15,567 nucleotides of DNA from Chitinophagaceae bacterium. Its GTDB lineage: Bacteria; Bacteroidota; Bacteroidia; Chitinophagales; Chitinophagaceae. Shown here piece after piece: positions 354-8,892 of the stretch (the first letter of the stretch is position 1; every line of letters starts with the position of its first letter). A program made the position numbers and the translations under genes. The notes beneath the pieces were generated by a model. That model worked only from the letters and a program-made list of their open reading frames with translations, had not been told where the DNA came from and did no database searches. The stretch spans positions 1-15,567 of the forward strand of contig DAOLFO010000041.1 of assembly GCA_035326305.1 (NCBI GenBank), read 5' to 3'.

Positions 354-968
354 ATGGAAAAAGTAATTAACAGCATACCGGGCTACCGGGTATATGAATA
401 CCTGCTGGTGCTGAGCCCGCATGAGGAGCTGTGGAATAAAATCATGAAAGTGAAGGATGAGTTTGCCACTGCTTATGATCAGGAACAGGCGAGGTGGGGC
501 AAGCCGCATGTGACGCTGGTAAGCTTTATACAGTATGCCATGATGGAGGAGCGGCTGGTAAACCGGCTGCGCACGGTGGCGATGGGCACCACACCGTTTA
601 AAGTGGAGCTGAAAGATTTTGGCAGCTTCCCTGCGCATACCATTTATATCAATGTGCTGAGCAAAGTGCCGGTGCAGACACTGATTAAAAATATACGGCA
701 TGAAACGCAGCGGCTGATGAAGCTGAATGAGGACAATAAGCCGCACTTCATACTGGAGCCGCACCTGACGATAGCCCGGCGGCTGCAGCCCTGGCAATAT
801 GAGAAGGGCTGGCAGGAGTATAGTCACCGGTCGTTTACAGGAAGGTTTATTGCAGATAGCGTGACACTGCTGCGAAGGCCGGTGGGGGAACTGAAGTACC
901 AGGCCGTGCGGCGTTTTGCCTTTCAGAATATGCCGGTGCGCACAAAGCAGGGGGAATTGTTTGGGTGA
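354..968 (+). CDS. 2H phosphoesterase superfamily protein, LigT-like (RNA 2',3'-cyclic phosphodiesterase / 2'-5' RNA ligase family)
   Basis: 204 aa with two H-x-T-x motifs (PHVTLVSF near residue 52, PHLTIARR near residue 138) about 86 residues apart, the defining pair of the 2H/LigT fold. The size is typical (E. coli LigT is 176 aa). Confidence 0.65.
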   Translation: MEKVINSIPGYRVYEYLLVLSPHEELWNKIMKVKDEFATAYDQEQARWGKPHVTLVSFIQYAMMEERLVNRLRTVAMGTTPFKVELKDFGSFPAHTIYINVLSKVPVQTLIKNIRHETQRLMKLNEDNKPHFILEPHLTIARRLQPWQYEKGWQEYSHRSFTGRFIADSVTLLRRPVGELKYQAVRRFAFQNMPVRTKQGELFG

Positions 969-1060
969 GAGGGTTTGAAGTTTGAAGTTTAAAGTTTGAG
1001 GTGTAAGGTTTAGGTGTTTAATAGGTTTAAGAAGTTCAAGAGGTTAAAAAAGTTTAAAGG
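966..1060 (+). repeat. Copy A of a C-depleted heptamer-array repeat (gtttgaa gtttgaa gtttaaa gtttgag gtgtaag gtttagg ... ggtttaagaagttcaagaggtt...)
   Basis: A tandem of degenerate 7-mers GTTTRAR/GTTCAAR seen directly in the sequence. It starts at the TGA stop (966-968) of the upstream gene. The block ggtttaagaagttcaagagg is shared with copy B. Confidence 0.8.
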
Positions 1061-1570: not shown

Positions 1571-2695
1571 ATGAGTAATCAGTTAAAGCAGGACCACTAT
1601 AAAGTGGCCCCGAAAAAGCAGGAGGAAGCAGCGGGAGAAAAAGCGGGCAGCTATATTGCCGGAAGAGGGGCGCAATTCAATACGAAAAACCGGTTTCTGA
1701 AAGATGAACGGACCCGGGAGCATATCGAAGGCATTGATGACTGGGAAGAAGCCATACAACCCACACAATATATCGAGCAGCAGGCAAAGACGATTGTGAA
1801 TAAGGTGGAGAGCAAAGATGTGGGCATGGGCTACAGCATGAATCCGTATGCCGGCTGTGAGCATGGCTGTATCTACTGCTATGCACGCAATGTGCATGAA
1901 TACTGGGGCTATAGCGCCGGGCTGGACTTTGAGCAGAAAATCATTGTAAAAAAGAATGCACCGCAACTGCTGCGGAAATTCCTGATGCACAAAAGCTGGG
2001 ATGCCACACCCATCATGCTCAGTGGTAATACCGACTGCTATCAGCCCGCCGAACAAAAATACCGGCTGACGCGGGGGCTGCTGGAGGTTTGCAATGAGTT
2101 TAACCAGCCGGTGGGCATACTGACTAAAAATTCATGGATACTGAAGGATAAGGATGTACTGCAGGAAATGGGGCGGAAAAAAATAGTATCGGCCATGGTG
2201 TCTATTACTTCCTTTAATGAAGACCTGCGCCGGGTAATGGAGCCGAGAACAACTACTGCCAGGCAAAAACTAAAAGTGATTAATGAATTGAGCAGCGCCG
2301 GTGTGCGCATGGGCATCATGATGGGGCCGATGATACCCGGCCTGAATGAGCATGAGATGCAGCGCATCATGAAAGCGGCGGCAGACAATGGCGCCACGTT
2401 TACCGCCTATACTTTCATCCGGCTGAACGGGGCCATCAAGTTTTTGTTTCATGACTGGTTGTATAAAAACTTTCCTGACCGGGCAGATAAAATATGGCAC
2501 CTGATAGAAAAAAGCCACGATGGCAAAGTAAATGATACCCGGTGGGGAGTACGTATGAGGGGGGAAGGGCCGATAGCAGAGATAGTGGCGCAGCAGTATA
2601 AAAAGTATGGAAAGCTCTATGGGATGAATGCAGAGGAGTGGAGCCTTGAGAGGAACCTGTTCAGGAGGCCGGGCGAGCAGGGAAGGTTGTTTTGA
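1571..2695 (+). CDS. Radical SAM protein, PA0069/SplB-like family (COG1533 'DNA repair photolyase'-type)
   Basis: 374 aa with the CxxxCxxC cluster in YAGCEHGCIYCYARN. Length and layout match the PA0069-family rSAM proteins. Its TGA stop (2693-2695) is the first triplet of repeat copy B. Confidence 0.7.
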   Translation: MSNQLKQDHYKVAPKKQEEAAGEKAGSYIAGRGAQFNTKNRFLKDERTREHIEGIDDWEEAIQPTQYIEQQAKTIVNKVESKDVGMGYSMNPYAGCEHGCIYCYARNVHEYWGYSAGLDFEQKIIVKKNAPQLLRKFLMHKSWDATPIMLSGNTDCYQPAEQKYRLTRGLLEVCNEFNQPVGILTKNSWILKDKDVLQEMGRKKIVSAMVSITSFNEDLRRVMEPRTTTARQKLKVINELSSAGVRMGIMMGPMIPGLNEHEMQRIMKAAADNGATFTAYTFIRLNGAIKFLFHDWLYKNFPDRADKIWHLIEKSHDGKVNDTRWGVRMRGEGPIAEIVAQQYKKYGKLYGMNAEEWSLERNLFRRPGEQGRLF

Positions 2696-2750
2696 GATTT
2701 GGGAGGTTTAAGAAGTTCAAGAGGTTTAAAGTTTAATGTTTAAGGTTGGG
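2693..2750 (+). repeat. Copy B of the heptamer-array repeat (tgagatttgg gaggtttaa gaagttcaa gaggtttaa agtttaa tgtttaa ggttggg)
   Basis: Seen directly. It shares TGAGATTTG with copy C, ggtttaagaagttcaagaggtttaaa with copy A and gtttaaggttggg with copy D. Confidence 0.8.
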
Positions 2751-3110
2751 TGGTGTTAAAGTACCAGGGAAGGCTTGTTGTAACAGGTTGCCGGTAAAAA
2801 TAGCAGCAAGCATAACGATGAGGTTTTTGAAATCTGCTTAAGAATGTCTGCAATGGTTACAGGCAGGCATCACCTGATACGAGATGGCGGTGAAAGAGCT
2901 GCTATAAATTATTTTTTAAAAATTCTTCTTCAAAAATTTGGCAACAACAAAAAAATAGTTTCATCTTTGCACCGCAAAACAAAAAACATGCTACGCATAC
3001 AGTTACATATTGAAGCAGGAAATTGGTTTAGCCCCAAAGGAGGCTATACCAGTTGCGGGGCATGTAGTGCTGCGAATTAAGTTGCAATAACTCATTCAAT
3101 GAAATACAGG

Positions 3111-3140
3111 CCCCGCAAGAGATTGCGGGGTTTTTGTTTG
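3111..3140 (+). terminator. Rho-independent terminator (CCCCGCAA-gaga-TTGCGGGG + TTTTTGTTTG)
   Basis: A perfect 8-bp GC-rich stem, 4-nt loop and T-run. There is no convincing protein gene upstream, so it probably ends an ncRNA or leader. Confidence 0.7.
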
Positions 3141-3399
3141 TATATATTTCACCACCTGCCGGCATCCTGACAGATGCTGAAGCGGGAGTAAGAAAATAAA
3201 AATCAAAAGAGATAAATGACAGTGTTATCATGGTATCATCAGTTGGGGAGTAAAAAAAATACACCCTTAGGCATGTGCTGCTTTATAAAAGCAGTTGCGG
3301 GGAATGGTGTGCCCGTTATGCAAATTGATAACCGAAATAAAAATAAAAGACCGGATGGTATTCCGATACGGGTGTGTTAACACCTGTCAGCAGGATTAA

Positions 3400-3430
3400 G
3401 CCCGGTCAGCAGTTGACCGGGCTTTTTTAT
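3400..3430 (+). terminator. Rho-independent terminator (GCCCGGTCA-gcagt-TGACCGGGC + TTTTTTAT)
   Basis: A 9-bp stem, 5-nt loop and T6 run, immediately upstream of the SD of the 45-aa ORF. A T-run follows only on the + strand. Confidence 0.7.
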
Positions 3431-3450
3431 ACCCGGAAAAAGGAGGAGCT

Positions 3451-3588
3451 ATGAAATTTTTGCTGGCTGTACTGGTAATTCACCTGGTAATCGCTTTTAT
3501 CAGCAACAGGAAAGAAAATAAAAAAATGCAGCAGGGGCAGCCGAAAGCTGATGGTGCTTTGCATCCGGCGGAGTACCTGCTGCGCTAA
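3451..3588 (+). CDS. Small ORF, 45 aa, hydrophobic N-terminal helix plus charged tail (MKFLLAVLVIHLVIAFISNRKENKKMQQGQPKADGALHPAEYLLR)
   Basis: An ATG preceded by AGGAGG 4 nt upstream, which is unusual in this genome style. One predicted TM helix followed by a basic tail. It sits between a terminator and the tRNA-like genes. Confidence 0.3.
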   Translation: MKFLLAVLVIHLVIAFISNRKENKKMQQGQPKADGALHPAEYLLR

Positions 3589-3702
3589 CAGGATTATGTG
3601 CAGAAGGAGGGATAAAGCTCCCCGCAGGTGCAGCGGGGATGCTTTTCCAAAAAAACAACCGTTAAACCTACTATGAAAATGGCGGCAGCAATGCCGCTGC
3701 CT

Positions 3703-3775
3703 ATAGCAGCATTCCAATTGGTTGGATACTCCGCCTGGAACGGAGAGGATGCAGGTTCGAGCCCTGCCTGCTATA
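3703..3775 (+). tRNA. tRNA-like gene, 73 nt cloverleaf, anticodon UGG (Pro) at canonical positions, with C8 and C33
   Basis: Hand fold of 3703..3775. Acceptor ATAGCAG/CTGCTAT is 7/7 paired. D-arm TTCC-AATTGGTT-GGAT has G18G19. Anticodon stem CTCCG/CGGAG with loop CCTGGAA. Variable loop AGGAT. T-arm GCAGG-TTCGAGC-CCTGC has a canonical T-loop. Discriminator A. The deviations are A1-U72, C8 (normally U), C33 (normally U) and one D-stem mismatch. Confidence 0.5.
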
Positions 3776-3860
3776 CATTAATTGTTATGAATTTAGAGAG
3801 AGAGAGAAGCCGGAGGCTTAAGCCATCCGCTAAAACAGTATGAATAAACAAGAGCAGTAC

Positions 3861-3933
3861 GGTGCTTTGGCAGAATGGATAGATGCGCCGGAGTGAAATC
3901 CCGGAGATCGTGGTTCAATTCCACGGGGCACCA
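3861..3933 (+). tRNA. tRNA-like gene, 73 nt cloverleaf, anticodon GAA (Phe), followed by CC
   Basis: Hand fold. Acceptor GGTGCTT/GGGCACC with two G-U pairs, U8. D-arm GCAG-AATGGATAG-ATGC. Anticodon stem CCGGA/CCCGG with an A31-C39 mismatch and loop GUGAAAU (U33, G34A35A36, A37). Variable loop AGAT. T-arm CGTGG-TTCAATT-CCACG. Discriminator A73, then CC at 3934-3935. G32 is unusual. Confidence 0.5.
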
Positions 3934-3971
3934 CCGGAAGAGTAGAAAATAAAAAAAGAAAACAAAGGAAA

Positions 3972-4499
3972 ATGGAGGCCGATATGGAAGAGACACAGCT
4001 ACAATGGAGAAAGCTGAACGGTGAGCGGCTGCGGATACCTATTGCCGAAGAAGTAAGCCGCATATTAATGCAGGAACGTGCTATGGGATATGATGTGAAA
4101 GCCTGTATTGGCACCGATAGCCAGGTGAAAGGTAAAGTGACAACGTTTGCTACCGTTATAGTATTTGTCCGGAAAGGAAAAGGCGGCTTCATGTATATAA
4201 GGAAAGAAGTTACAACACAGCGGATGAGCATCAAACAAAGGATGCTGGAAGAGGTGGCCAGGAGCGTGGAAGTGGCTTATGGGCTGTGCCGGTTATTTTC
4301 CCGGCATGGAGTGGATATGGAAGTGCATGCGGATATAAACACCAATCCGGGCTTCAAAAGCAACGATGCGTTAAAGGACGCCATGGGCTATATCATGGGA
4401 ATGTTTGCCCGGCCGGGAGAAACGGGTGGAGGCTTTGCCTTCAGGGCTAAACCGGATGCTTTTGCCAGCTCCAGTTGTGCAAATAAAATAGTGCAATAA
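3972..4499 (+). CDS. Hypothetical protein, possibly DUF458/YkuK-like RNase H-fold family
   Basis: 175 aa. CIGTDSQ near residue 45, VTTFATVIVFVRKGKGG, EVHADINTNP and a C-terminal AFASSSCANKIVQ resemble what I recall of the YkuK (DUF458) family. The family call is from memory, not a search. The gene itself is solid (clean ORF, co-oriented, 36 nt after tRNA-like 2). Confidence 0.45.
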   Translation: MEADMEETQLQWRKLNGERLRIPIAEEVSRILMQERAMGYDVKACIGTDSQVKGKVTTFATVIVFVRKGKGGFMYIRKEVTTQRMSIKQRMLEEVARSVEVAYGLCRLFSRHGVDMEVHADINTNPGFKSNDALKDAMGYIMGMFARPGETGGGFAFRAKPDAFASSSCANKIVQ

Positions 4500-7307: not shown

Positions 7308-7312
7308 ACACA

Positions 7313-7346
7313 CATCCGGTGCCGGCCGGTGCCGGATGTTTTTTAT
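7313..7346 (+). terminator. Strong rho-independent terminator (CATCCGGTGCCGG/CCGGTGCCGGATG hairpin + TTTTTTAT)
   Basis: A GC-rich stem of about 11-13 bp centred on CCGGCCGG, followed by a T6 run, 6 nt after the SPFH stop. Confidence 0.75.
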
Positions 7347-7352
7347 TTGAAA

Positions 7353-7405
7353 TGAGATTTGAAGTTTGAGGTTTAATGTTTAAAAGGTTCAGGAGGTTTA
7401 AAAAT
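7353..7405 (+). repeat. Copy C of the heptamer-array repeat (tgagatttgaa gtttgag gtttaat gtttaaa aggttcag gaggtttaaaaa)
   Basis: Seen directly. It lies between the SPFH terminator and the rtcB start, and its left end TGAGATTTG is identical to copy B. Confidence 0.8.
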
Positions 7406-7411
7406 AGTTTT

Positions 7412-8857
7412 ATGAGCAAATTAAAAATAACAGGGAAAGACCTGAGAGCTATTGATTACCCGGAGGGCCCGGTGATCAGCATAGCCATGCGTGTGGTGCA
7501 TAAGCATTACAAGCATCATGAAAAGGAGGAGGTAATGGACATATTAAAAAGAATACTGGCGGAGCCGGTGGAGTATGAGAAGGATGCGGTGCTGGGATTG
7601 ATAGCAGCGCAACTAATGCCAAAGAAGAAGGAAGGGAATGCAGAAATATCATTGAACCAGCAGGGAATACAATTTAGTGTATTCGGGCAGGAGCATATTG
7701 AAGAAGGGGCGATGCACCAGATGTACCAGGCGGCAAAGTTGCCCATAGCAGTTGCAGGTGCTTTGATGCCGGATGCCCATAGCGGGTACGGACTGCCTAT
7801 TGGTGGCGTATTAGCTACGCAAAATGCAGTGATACCTTATGGTGTGGGAGTAGACATCGGGTGCCGGATGTGCCTGAGCCTGTATGATATTGATCCAAAA
7901 GAGCTGGTGAACCGGGAGGCATTTTTTATACGGGAGCTGGGTGTGGCTACACTGTTTGGAAGCGGTGCACAATTTCAGCAAGCTGCCGATCATGCCGTGA
8001 TGGAGAATGAGCTGTTCAGGCAATTGCCATTGCTTAAACCCTTGCACGGAAGGGCATGGAAACAATTGGGATCATCCGGCTCCGGTAATCACTTTGCCGA
8101 ATTTGGGATAGTGGAAATAGCAGAGAAGGATGCTGTGCCGGGTGTGGAAGCGGGAAGCTATGTAGGTTTTCTGACGCACTCCGGTTCACGGGCATTGGGG
8201 GCCAATATTGCCAACCATTATACAAAGCTGGCCATCAGCAAAAGACGGCTGCCGCAGGAAGCGAAAAACCTGGCCTGGCTGACACTTGATGAAGCAGAGG
8301 GACATGAGTACTGGCTGGCGATGAACCTGGCCGGGGATTATGCATCGGCCTGCCACCATGTGATGCACGATAAGATTGCTAAACAACTGGGAAGAAAACC
8401 ACTAAAGCGGGTGGAGAACCACCACAACTTTGCCTGGAAGGAAATGTATGAAGGGCAGGAGGTAATTGTACACAGAAAAGGCGCTACACCTGCAGGGAAA
8501 GATGTGCTGGGTATTATTCCCGGTTCGATGACGGCAGCCGGGTTTATTGTAAAAGGTAAAGGAGAGGTTGCCTCTGTCAACTCAGCATCCCATGGTGCAG
8601 GAAGAAAGATGAGCCGCAGCAAAGCACTGCAATCAGTAACGGACAGGCAAATGAGAGAGGAACTGGATAAGCATGGCGTGAAACTGCTGGGTGGCGGACT
8701 GGATGAATCGCCATTTGCTTACAAGGACATTCATGTAGTGATGCAATCGCAACAATTGCTGGTGGATATAGTAGGACAGTTTACGCCAAAAATTGTAAAG
8801 ATGGATGGCGCACCACATAAGCAGTGGGGGAAGAAGGGTTCGGGAGGCAGGGTTTAA
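7412..8857 (+). CDS. rtcB: RNA-splicing ligase RtcB (3'-phosphate/2',3'-cyclic phosphate to 5'-OH RNA ligase)
   Basis: MPDAHSGYGLPIGGVLAT...IPYGVGVDIGCRM, GSGNHFAEF, ENHHNFAW and SASHGAGRKMSR are hallmark RtcB metal/GTP-binding motifs. The ORF-track start at 7376 reads through repeat C (MFKRFRRFKNSF), so Met at 7412 (MSKLKITGKDL) is the more likely start. Confidence 0.9.
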   Translation: MSKLKITGKDLRAIDYPEGPVISIAMRVVHKHYKHHEKEEVMDILKRILAEPVEYEKDAVLGLIAAQLMPKKKEGNAEISLNQQGIQFSVFGQEHIEEGAMHQMYQAAKLPIAVAGALMPDAHSGYGLPIGGVLATQNAVIPYGVGVDIGCRMCLSLYDIDPKELVNREAFFIRELGVATLFGSGAQFQQAADHAVMENELFRQLPLLKPLHGRAWKQLGSSGSGNHFAEFGIVEIAEKDAVPGVEAGSYVGFLTHSGSRALGANIANHYTKLAISKRRLPQEAKNLAWLTLDEAEGHEYWLAMNLAGDYASACHHVMHDKIAKQLGRKPLKRVENHHNFAWKEMYEGQEVIVHRKGATPAGKDVLGIIPGSMTAAGFIVKGKGEVASVNSASHGAGRKMSRSKALQSVTDRQMREELDKHGVKLLGGGLDESPFAYKDIHVVMQSQQLLVDIVGQFTPKIVKMDGAPHKQWGKKGSGGRV

Positions 8858-8892
8858 AGTTCAAAGTTTAAAGTTCAAGGTTTAAGGTTGGG
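8851..8892 (+). repeat. Copy D of the heptamer-array repeat (ggtttaaa gttcaaa gtttaaa gttcaag gtttaag gttggg)
   Basis: Seen directly. The rtcB stop codon TAA (8855-8857) lies inside the first unit. Its right end gtttaaggttggg matches copy B. Confidence 0.8.

Follow-up and report, generated by a model that had tools for sequence, protein, structure and literature searches.

Heterocystous cyanobacteria carry the STRR, heptanucleotide repeats that form lineage-specific tandem families scattered in non-coding DNA. Heptamers are given as the most abundant class of long simple-sequence repeats, with an origin by slippage proposed, in the work of Mrazek et al. (2007) as it is cited by two later papers (PMC4692102 and PMC4679880). 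Rehm et al. (2015, PMC4692102) described arrays of GGGAATC in Xanthomonas and of GGGGAYT in Nostoc, and the proximity of such arrays to stop codons is already published there; these G-rich heptamers are transcribed, and no regulatory role was found for them. MacGregor (2015, PMC4679880) described arrays of TAACTGA in Beggiatoaceae, cyanobacteria and some Bacteroidetes. The TAACTGA unit stops all reading frames, so that overlap with coding ends is at most 18 nt; the arrays are missing from the corresponding spacer in close relatives, and RNA-binding proteins were proposed as their partners.

The window considered here (the whole stretch of DNA that was analysed, 15,567 nt) belongs to a Chitinophagaceae MAG, from a soil-type bacterium. 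It is part of a metagenomic contig of 43 kb (ENA ERZ794923 NODE_213), with near-identical copies in three other assemblies. About 35 kb of the contig was inspected, and what is said of the behavior of the arrays genome-wide is extrapolated from that. An RtcB RNA-repair-type gene cluster occupies the + strand of the window, and four heptanucleotide-repeat arrays, all on the same strand, lie within 8 kb, all of them in gene spacers. The features needed for what follows are:

354..968, + strand: 2H (LigT-like) phosphoesterase gene (Pfam PF13563, E = 3e-20), whose stop adjoins array A
966..1058, + strand: array A, beginning with TGA 966-968 (the 2H phosphoesterase stop) and then GAGG
About 1092-1505, + strand: PDDEXK_3 (GxxExxY) gene, directly 3' of array A
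1571..2695, + strand: radical SAM gene (Pfam PF04055), whose stop adjoins array B
2693..2750, + strand: array B, beginning with TGA 2693-2695 (the radical SAM stop)
Between tRNA-Phe and the RtcB gene, + strand: RNaseH-like DUF458 gene, AAA ATPase and SPFH protein, in that order
7312-7339: terminator hairpin of the SPFH gene, 5' of array C
7353..7402, + strand: array C, between the SPFH terminator hairpin and the RtcB start at ATG 7412, on no stop
7412..8857, + strand: RtcB RNA ligase gene, its 3' end remodelled by array D
About 8834..8892, + strand: array D with its leader, containing the RtcB stop TAA 8855-8857

A first-pass annotation of the window had reported four copies of a repeat, three of them supplying the stop codon of the gene upstream and the fourth free-standing after a terminator. 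All four copies and all three stops are where it said, and array C is indeed unattached to any stop. The interval under which the observation was filed, 2693-2750, covers array B; arrays A, C and D lie outside it.

The repeat unit is TRARGTT (equivalently GTTYRAR), with some 9-nt variants interspersed. Array A is made up of about six 7-nt units at 973-1014 (GTTTGAA, GTTTAAA, GTTTGAG and similar), then about five 9-nt units at 1016-1058 (AGGTTTAAG, AAGTTCAAG and similar). After its TGA, array B continues as GATT TGGGAGGTT TAAGAAGTT CAAGAGGTT TAAAGTT TAATGTT TAAGGTT GGG, and array C reads TGAGATT TGAAGTT TGAGGTT TAATGTT TAAAAGGTT CAGGAGGTT TAAA. Array D consists of the leader GGTTCGGGAGGCAGG, then GTTTAAA GTTCAAA GTTTAAA GTTCAAG GTTTAAG GTTGGG, with the RtcB stop inside GGTTTAAAG. 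The best register is TRARGTT, in which every unit opens with TAA or TGA, the TGAGATT of arrays B and C being a degenerate first unit and TGAGAGGGTT of array A a poor one. Units start 7 nt apart, 9-nt variants aside, and stand head to tail in tandem. TRF finds arrays of period 7/14 at 973-1017, 2724-2747, 7353-7381 and 8852-8889, and a search for four successive GTTYRAD units (at most two mismatches) finds 8 matches in the window, overlapping ones counted, whereas none of 200 shuffled sequences has a match. No + frame is without a stop in any of the arrays, and the C content is 1-7%. Since the units open with a stop and seven is not a multiple of three, about 21 nt of array suffice to close every frame, and an array that touches the end of a gene will automatically overlap a stop codon to some extent.

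Arrays A and C finish shortly 5' of start codons. Two starts in the list of open reading frames (GTG 1014 and ATG 7376) fall within these arrays; the true start of RtcB is ATG 7412. The deposited PDDEXK_3 call (L001 3605-4096; 163 aa, and 160 aa in the co-occurring strain L210) likewise begins inside array A, and this start is probably an artefact of annotation. The 9-nt units of array A, if translated, give a basic peptide of the FKKFKR type. I rejected N-terminal extensions of PDDEXK_3 and RtcB encoded by in-frame 9-nt units: orthologs and gene calls start RtcB at MSKLK, and an in-frame reading of these units is expected by chance in about 1/9 of cases. The practical consequence is that gene callers open reading frames inside such arrays (1014, 7376 and the 163-aa PDDEXK_3 call), and heptamer arrays can also clip true C-termini, for example that of RtcB.

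The arrays belong to the known bacterial intergenic heptamer repeats, with another unit and in another phylum. They show the features of the STRR and long simple-sequence repeat class, namely tandem arrangement of at least three units, dispersal outside coding sequence beyond chance, instability and turnover of units, and position at stop codons. They differ from those repeats in phylum and unit, and the relation to stop codons was not the focus of those studies. Like GGGAATC of Xanthomonas and GGGGAYT of Nostoc, they are dispersed and intergenic, consist of few 7-nt units, and lie mostly between co-directional genes, nearer the one upstream. Unlike them, the unit here is A/T-rich and nearly free of C, cannot form a G-quadruplex, is interspersed with 9-nt variants, carries its own stop codon and is found in a Bacteroidota host. 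The likeness to TAACTGA lies in the stop-containing unit, the intergenic location and the sense orientation. TAACTGA arrays are often just 5' of start codons, and those of Bacteroidetes likewise adjoin other heptamer arrays. The unit sequence differs, however, and three of the four arrays of the window are at stops rather than at starts.

For comparison, 80 orthologous RtcB loci were fetched from metagenomes, and the other genes of the operon were then located in them. The first-pass annotation had proposed insertion into, or capture at, the 3' ends of genes, and that proposal holds for RtcB, whose tail is altered, and fails for the 2H phosphoesterase and radical SAM genes, whose orthologs end at the same residue as the genes of the window. 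The 2H orthologs that lack the repeat stop at the same place, the residue after ...KQGELF being G, V or M (in L172, as in the window, the end is ...KQGELFG), and the radical SAM orthologs that lack it (L144, L130, L125) end in ...GEQGRLF, exactly as in the window. In neither case is the sequence 3' of the stop in repeat-free orthologs related to the array. Both stops are therefore ancestral in position, with the array starting directly after.

The orthologs have a conserved promoter-like block directly after the radical SAM stop. In the window this block is displaced to about 2903-2960, so that array B and the adjoining sequence form a lineage-specific insertion right at the stop:

2696..2902, + strand: lineage-specific insertion of about 207 nt, comprising array B and about 150 nt of non-repeat sequence

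By alignment the junction of this insertion may be placed either before or after the ancestral stop. The non-repeat part found no BLASTN or TBLASTX match in any fetched locus, nor did the sequences to the right of arrays A and D.

The end of RtcB is different. The protein ends in ...GE in 111 of its 120 closest homologs, typically as ...WGKKGREEVAGE, and of 76 ortholog loci about 70 have the stop after GE, usually with a hairpin terminator next. The RtcB of the window ends in ...WGKKGSGGRV; the tail SGGRV is encoded by the repeat-like GGTTCGGGAGGCAGG, which resembles the leaders of arrays A and B. Array D supplies the stop, as the TAA of its first clean unit, and no terminator comes after it; array B lacks a terminator too. 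The last few RtcB codons and the usual terminator have thus been replaced by array D and its leader, which contains GGGAGG. Two parallels occur among the orthologs. In L194 RtcB ends in ...WRKKQ, and the TAA that stops it is the first unit of (TAAAATG)x4.7; in L205 it ends in ...SWDKI, and the TGA stands directly before GTTCAGAGTTCATAG. Both are shortened tails flush with other heptamer arrays, and both are independent of the window. Two more atypical RtcB tails (L206 and L207) have no array.

In the window itself, three of the four arrays are at or overlap the upstream gene's stop on the coding strand. One genome per species was scanned for GTTYRAD arrays, which were found in many phyla, often beside other heptamer arrays or as inverted pairs. 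Counted from the start of the array, a same-strand ORF ended between -10 and +6 nt in 34 of 110 cases (31%), as against 13% for arrays placed at random in ORF-free DNA (p = 1.3e-6). ORFs were here taken from stop to stop, with a minimum of 100 codons (mostly 200-1400), and are not curated genes. At the other end of the arrays, an opposite-strand stop was found in 21 of 110 (19%, as against 11% at random). Among the intergenic heptamer arrays of the related Chitinophagaceae loci, whatever their unit, 12 of 34 were at most 10 nt from the stop of a long ORF, defined in the same way, with 9% expected at random (p = 2.7e-5). Such arrays have a general tendency to lie flush with stop codons. The preference is not merely a by-product of units that contain stops, since many of the cross-phylum arrays (GTTCAAG, GTTCGAG), whose units contain none, still begin right after TGA, TAA or TAG. 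A tendency known for the G-rich heptamers of Xanthomonas and Nostoc hence extends to a unit rich in A and T, both in Bacteroidota and in other phyla, which argues against an explanation specific to G-quadruplexes.

The arrays turn over rapidly in position. They are absent from the corresponding spacers in related Chitinophagaceae, including loci with an RtcB 83% identical to that of the window, and the SPFH-RtcB spacer that holds array C lacks it in the ortholog loci examined. The co-occurring strain L210 has array A minus one 9-nt unit, and 14 of the 16 differences between it and the window over 2459 nt are clustered in 45 nt (1022-1066), the 3' half of array A. Arrays B, C and D have a constant number of units in all strain-level sequences that cover each of them (three to five), and array B has a single-nucleotide difference in L004 (2697 A>G). 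The arrays also have parts in common: a 25-nt block of A and B (96% identical), a gapless stretch of 57 nt at the start of array A that is 79% identical in D, a right end GTTTAAGGTTGGG in B and D (93% identical) and a left end TGAGATTTG in B and C. Arrays of many different heptamers are found in the related Chitinophagaceae loci.

MITEs, integron attC cassettes and REP elements are likewise short, present in multiple copies, intergenic and sometimes near stop codons, and the resemblance to MITEs and integron-like cassettes had been suggested for this repeat. It does not hold. Terminal inverted repeats were looked for around each array and not found, the flanks of the arrays share no target-site duplication, and no end-to-end alignment of the copies is possible, as their lengths range from 50 to 93 nt and their 7-mer and 9-mer blocks come in different orders. 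The four arrays fold no better as RNA than shuffled sequences (z = 0.43, -0.15, 0.42 and -1.23); none forms a hairpin of the REP/BIME type or an attC-like structure, and no array has an inverted partner in the window. Neither an integron integrase nor a transposase is among the genes called in 35 kb, and Rfam gives no match over the arrays at gathering thresholds, nor at E <= 1 over 2650-4000. Having neither inverted-repeat ends nor target-site duplications, neither RNA structure, fixed length nor integrase, the repeat is neither a MITE nor an integron cassette.

I read the four copies as lineage-specific heptanucleotide simple-sequence repeat arrays in the non-coding spacers of an RtcB operon, and put the probability of this account as a whole at about 0.7. 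The arrays would grow and shrink by replication slippage, and recombination would copy them from spacer to spacer, as the higher-order blocks common to A and B, A and D, and B and D suggest. Selection on the flanking coding and promoter sequence may leave the position right at a stop as the main site that is tolerated, and, with its built-in stops, an array could take a few codons off a dispensable C-terminal tail without harm, as in RtcB. A striking pattern, one repeat giving three stop codons, would then have an ordinary explanation, a known class of heptamers with stop-containing units. Slippage alone does not explain the same family of units and shared blocks at four sites, so a copy-and-paste step is needed, nor does slippage by itself bring an array flush to a stop. 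Targeting or a function is another possible cause of the enrichment at stops, which is roughly 2- to 4-fold.

The repeat might instead be a small non-autonomous mobile element, or the boundary of a cassette, that inserts site-specifically at or just after stops and brings its own stop at its left end. The ends that copies share and the blocks common to A and B and to A and D would fit such an element, as would the enrichment at stops across phyla and the placement of three of the arrays: B within its 207-nt insertion at the radical SAM stop, A on the site of the left inverted arm of a PDDEXK_3 cassette in L162, and D at the limit of conserved synteny, the ortholog loci having yielded no DoxX homolog. 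Array B came in with about 150 nt of sequence unrelated to it, which is more suggestive of insertion than of growth in place. I nevertheless consider such an element unlikely, given copies that vary from 50 to 93 nt and lack terminal inverted repeats and target-site duplications, the lack of a transposase or integrase in 35 kb, the ancestral position of two of the three stops, and the variation of array A by whole units, which is how simple-sequence repeats behave. Equally speculative is a mechanism shared across phyla that places or seeds heptamer arrays at stop codons, recurrently rewriting C-terminal tails or terminators and marking the junctions where cassettes enter. Seeding could proceed, for example, through microhomology with gene ends or through recombination that carries an "all-frame stop" leader. 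If this doubtful proposal were true, tails and terminators would be rewritten as in three independent RtcB lineages, and arrays would mark where small cassettes (PDDEXK_3 and 23S-rRNA-IVP genes) enter operons.

Function, if the arrays have one, is probably exerted at the level of RNA. They might serve as multivalent sites for a protein that binds single-stranded RNA (S1, cold-shock or CsrA-like) or, being poor in C, as modulators of translation start, of termination or of Rho. All four have the sense orientation, contain hardly any C and lack structure, two finish shortly before start codons, and the cross-phylum excess is greater at same-strand stops (31% versus 13%) than at those on the opposite strand (19% versus 11%); moreover, a role for RNA-binding proteins has been proposed in the case of TAACTGA (MacGregor 2015, PMC4679880). 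Against this, the arrays are not conserved in position in related Chitinophagaceae operons, even at the loci with 83%-identical RtcB, and so are not an integral regulatory part of the operon; the heptamer units differ between lineages and even within this contig, and the heptamers of Xanthomonas and Nostoc showed no regulatory role (Rehm et al. 2015, PMC4692102). A functional RNA element thus seems to me improbable, if worth keeping in mind. That the arrays are phase-variable contingency repeats, switching neighboring genes by the number of units, is very hard to credit: array A does differ between strains of one sample by one 9-nt unit and clustered substitutions, but the arrays lie after stops or in spacers, not within reading frames or between promoter hexamers, and the number of units in B, C and D is identical in the strain-level sequences that cover them.

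Several observations were made on the neighborhoods of the arrays. The radical SAM-DUF458 gap (2903-3935) consists of the promoter-like block followed by three units, each closed by a strong terminator hairpin (3108-3133, 3398-3424 and 3619-3639). A tRNA-like sequence is found at 3703-3775 (Rfam tRNA score of 48.5 bits, with no ARAGORN call) and tRNA-Phe at 3861-3935. No Rfam family fits the candidate small-RNA units, which may be a set of small RNAs of the RtcB repair operon.

In L162 the PDDEXK_3 gene lies between the 2H and radical SAM genes, enclosed by inverted arms, CCACGGAGGCAGGG... and ...CCCTGTCTCCGTGG (730-775 and 1195-1235). The window retains only the right arm, CACTGTGTTACTCTGTGTCTCCGTG (1523-1548), and has array A in place of the left. 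The window's SPFH-RtcB spacer (7308-7411) contains nothing but the terminator and array C. In many orthologous loci (L127, L155, L188, L190, L176, L160, L172, L134 and L174) this spacer has grown to 200-2100 nt, and variable cargo ORFs stand there between a conserved inverted pair, CATCGTCTGTTGCGTCGCAC ... GTGCGACGCAACAGACGATG. The expanded spacer has the look of a hot spot for insertions, or of a structured element whose loop contains a gene.

GTTCAAR arrays of other phyla (L022, L031, L040, L064, L075 and L097) are often paired in inverted orientation, 10-30 nt apart and directly after stops; such a pair would fold into a long perfect hairpin similar to a REP element or a terminator, of a kind that the window does not have. 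L054 has, at 146-643, two inverted GTTTAAA arrays (146-180 on the + strand and 616-643 on the - strand) that enclose a 23S-rRNA-IVP-type gene (206-544), much as the loop of a long hairpin might enclose a gene. The Desulfobacterales locus L043 has five GTTCAAR arrays, each within a longer dispersed repeat, and two IVP-type genes. I rejected a general link between arrays and PDDEXK_3 or 23S-rRNA-IVP genes: in 1.6 Mb of fetched loci the two occur together, beyond the expected orthologs, only in L027, L043, L054 and L167, which are too few.

Other heptamer arrays are present on the same contig. About 400-600 nt 5' of the start of the window, the spacer between an umuD-like and an umuC-like gene (L208 9065-9272) contains (TACGATT)x5.7, (TGGTCGT)x3 and (CGATTTA)x4, as well as a block of about 29 nt (GTAAATCGTAAATCAAAAATCGTAAATCG, on the gene strand) that recurs in similar form about 125 nt away. 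Downstream of the window (L001 19495-21066, compared with L002 13678-15153), a 23S-rRNA-IVP-type gene without flanking heptamer arrays lies within a polysaccharide biosynthesis cluster, and the neighboring epimerase is 381 aa long in one strain and 349 aa in the other.
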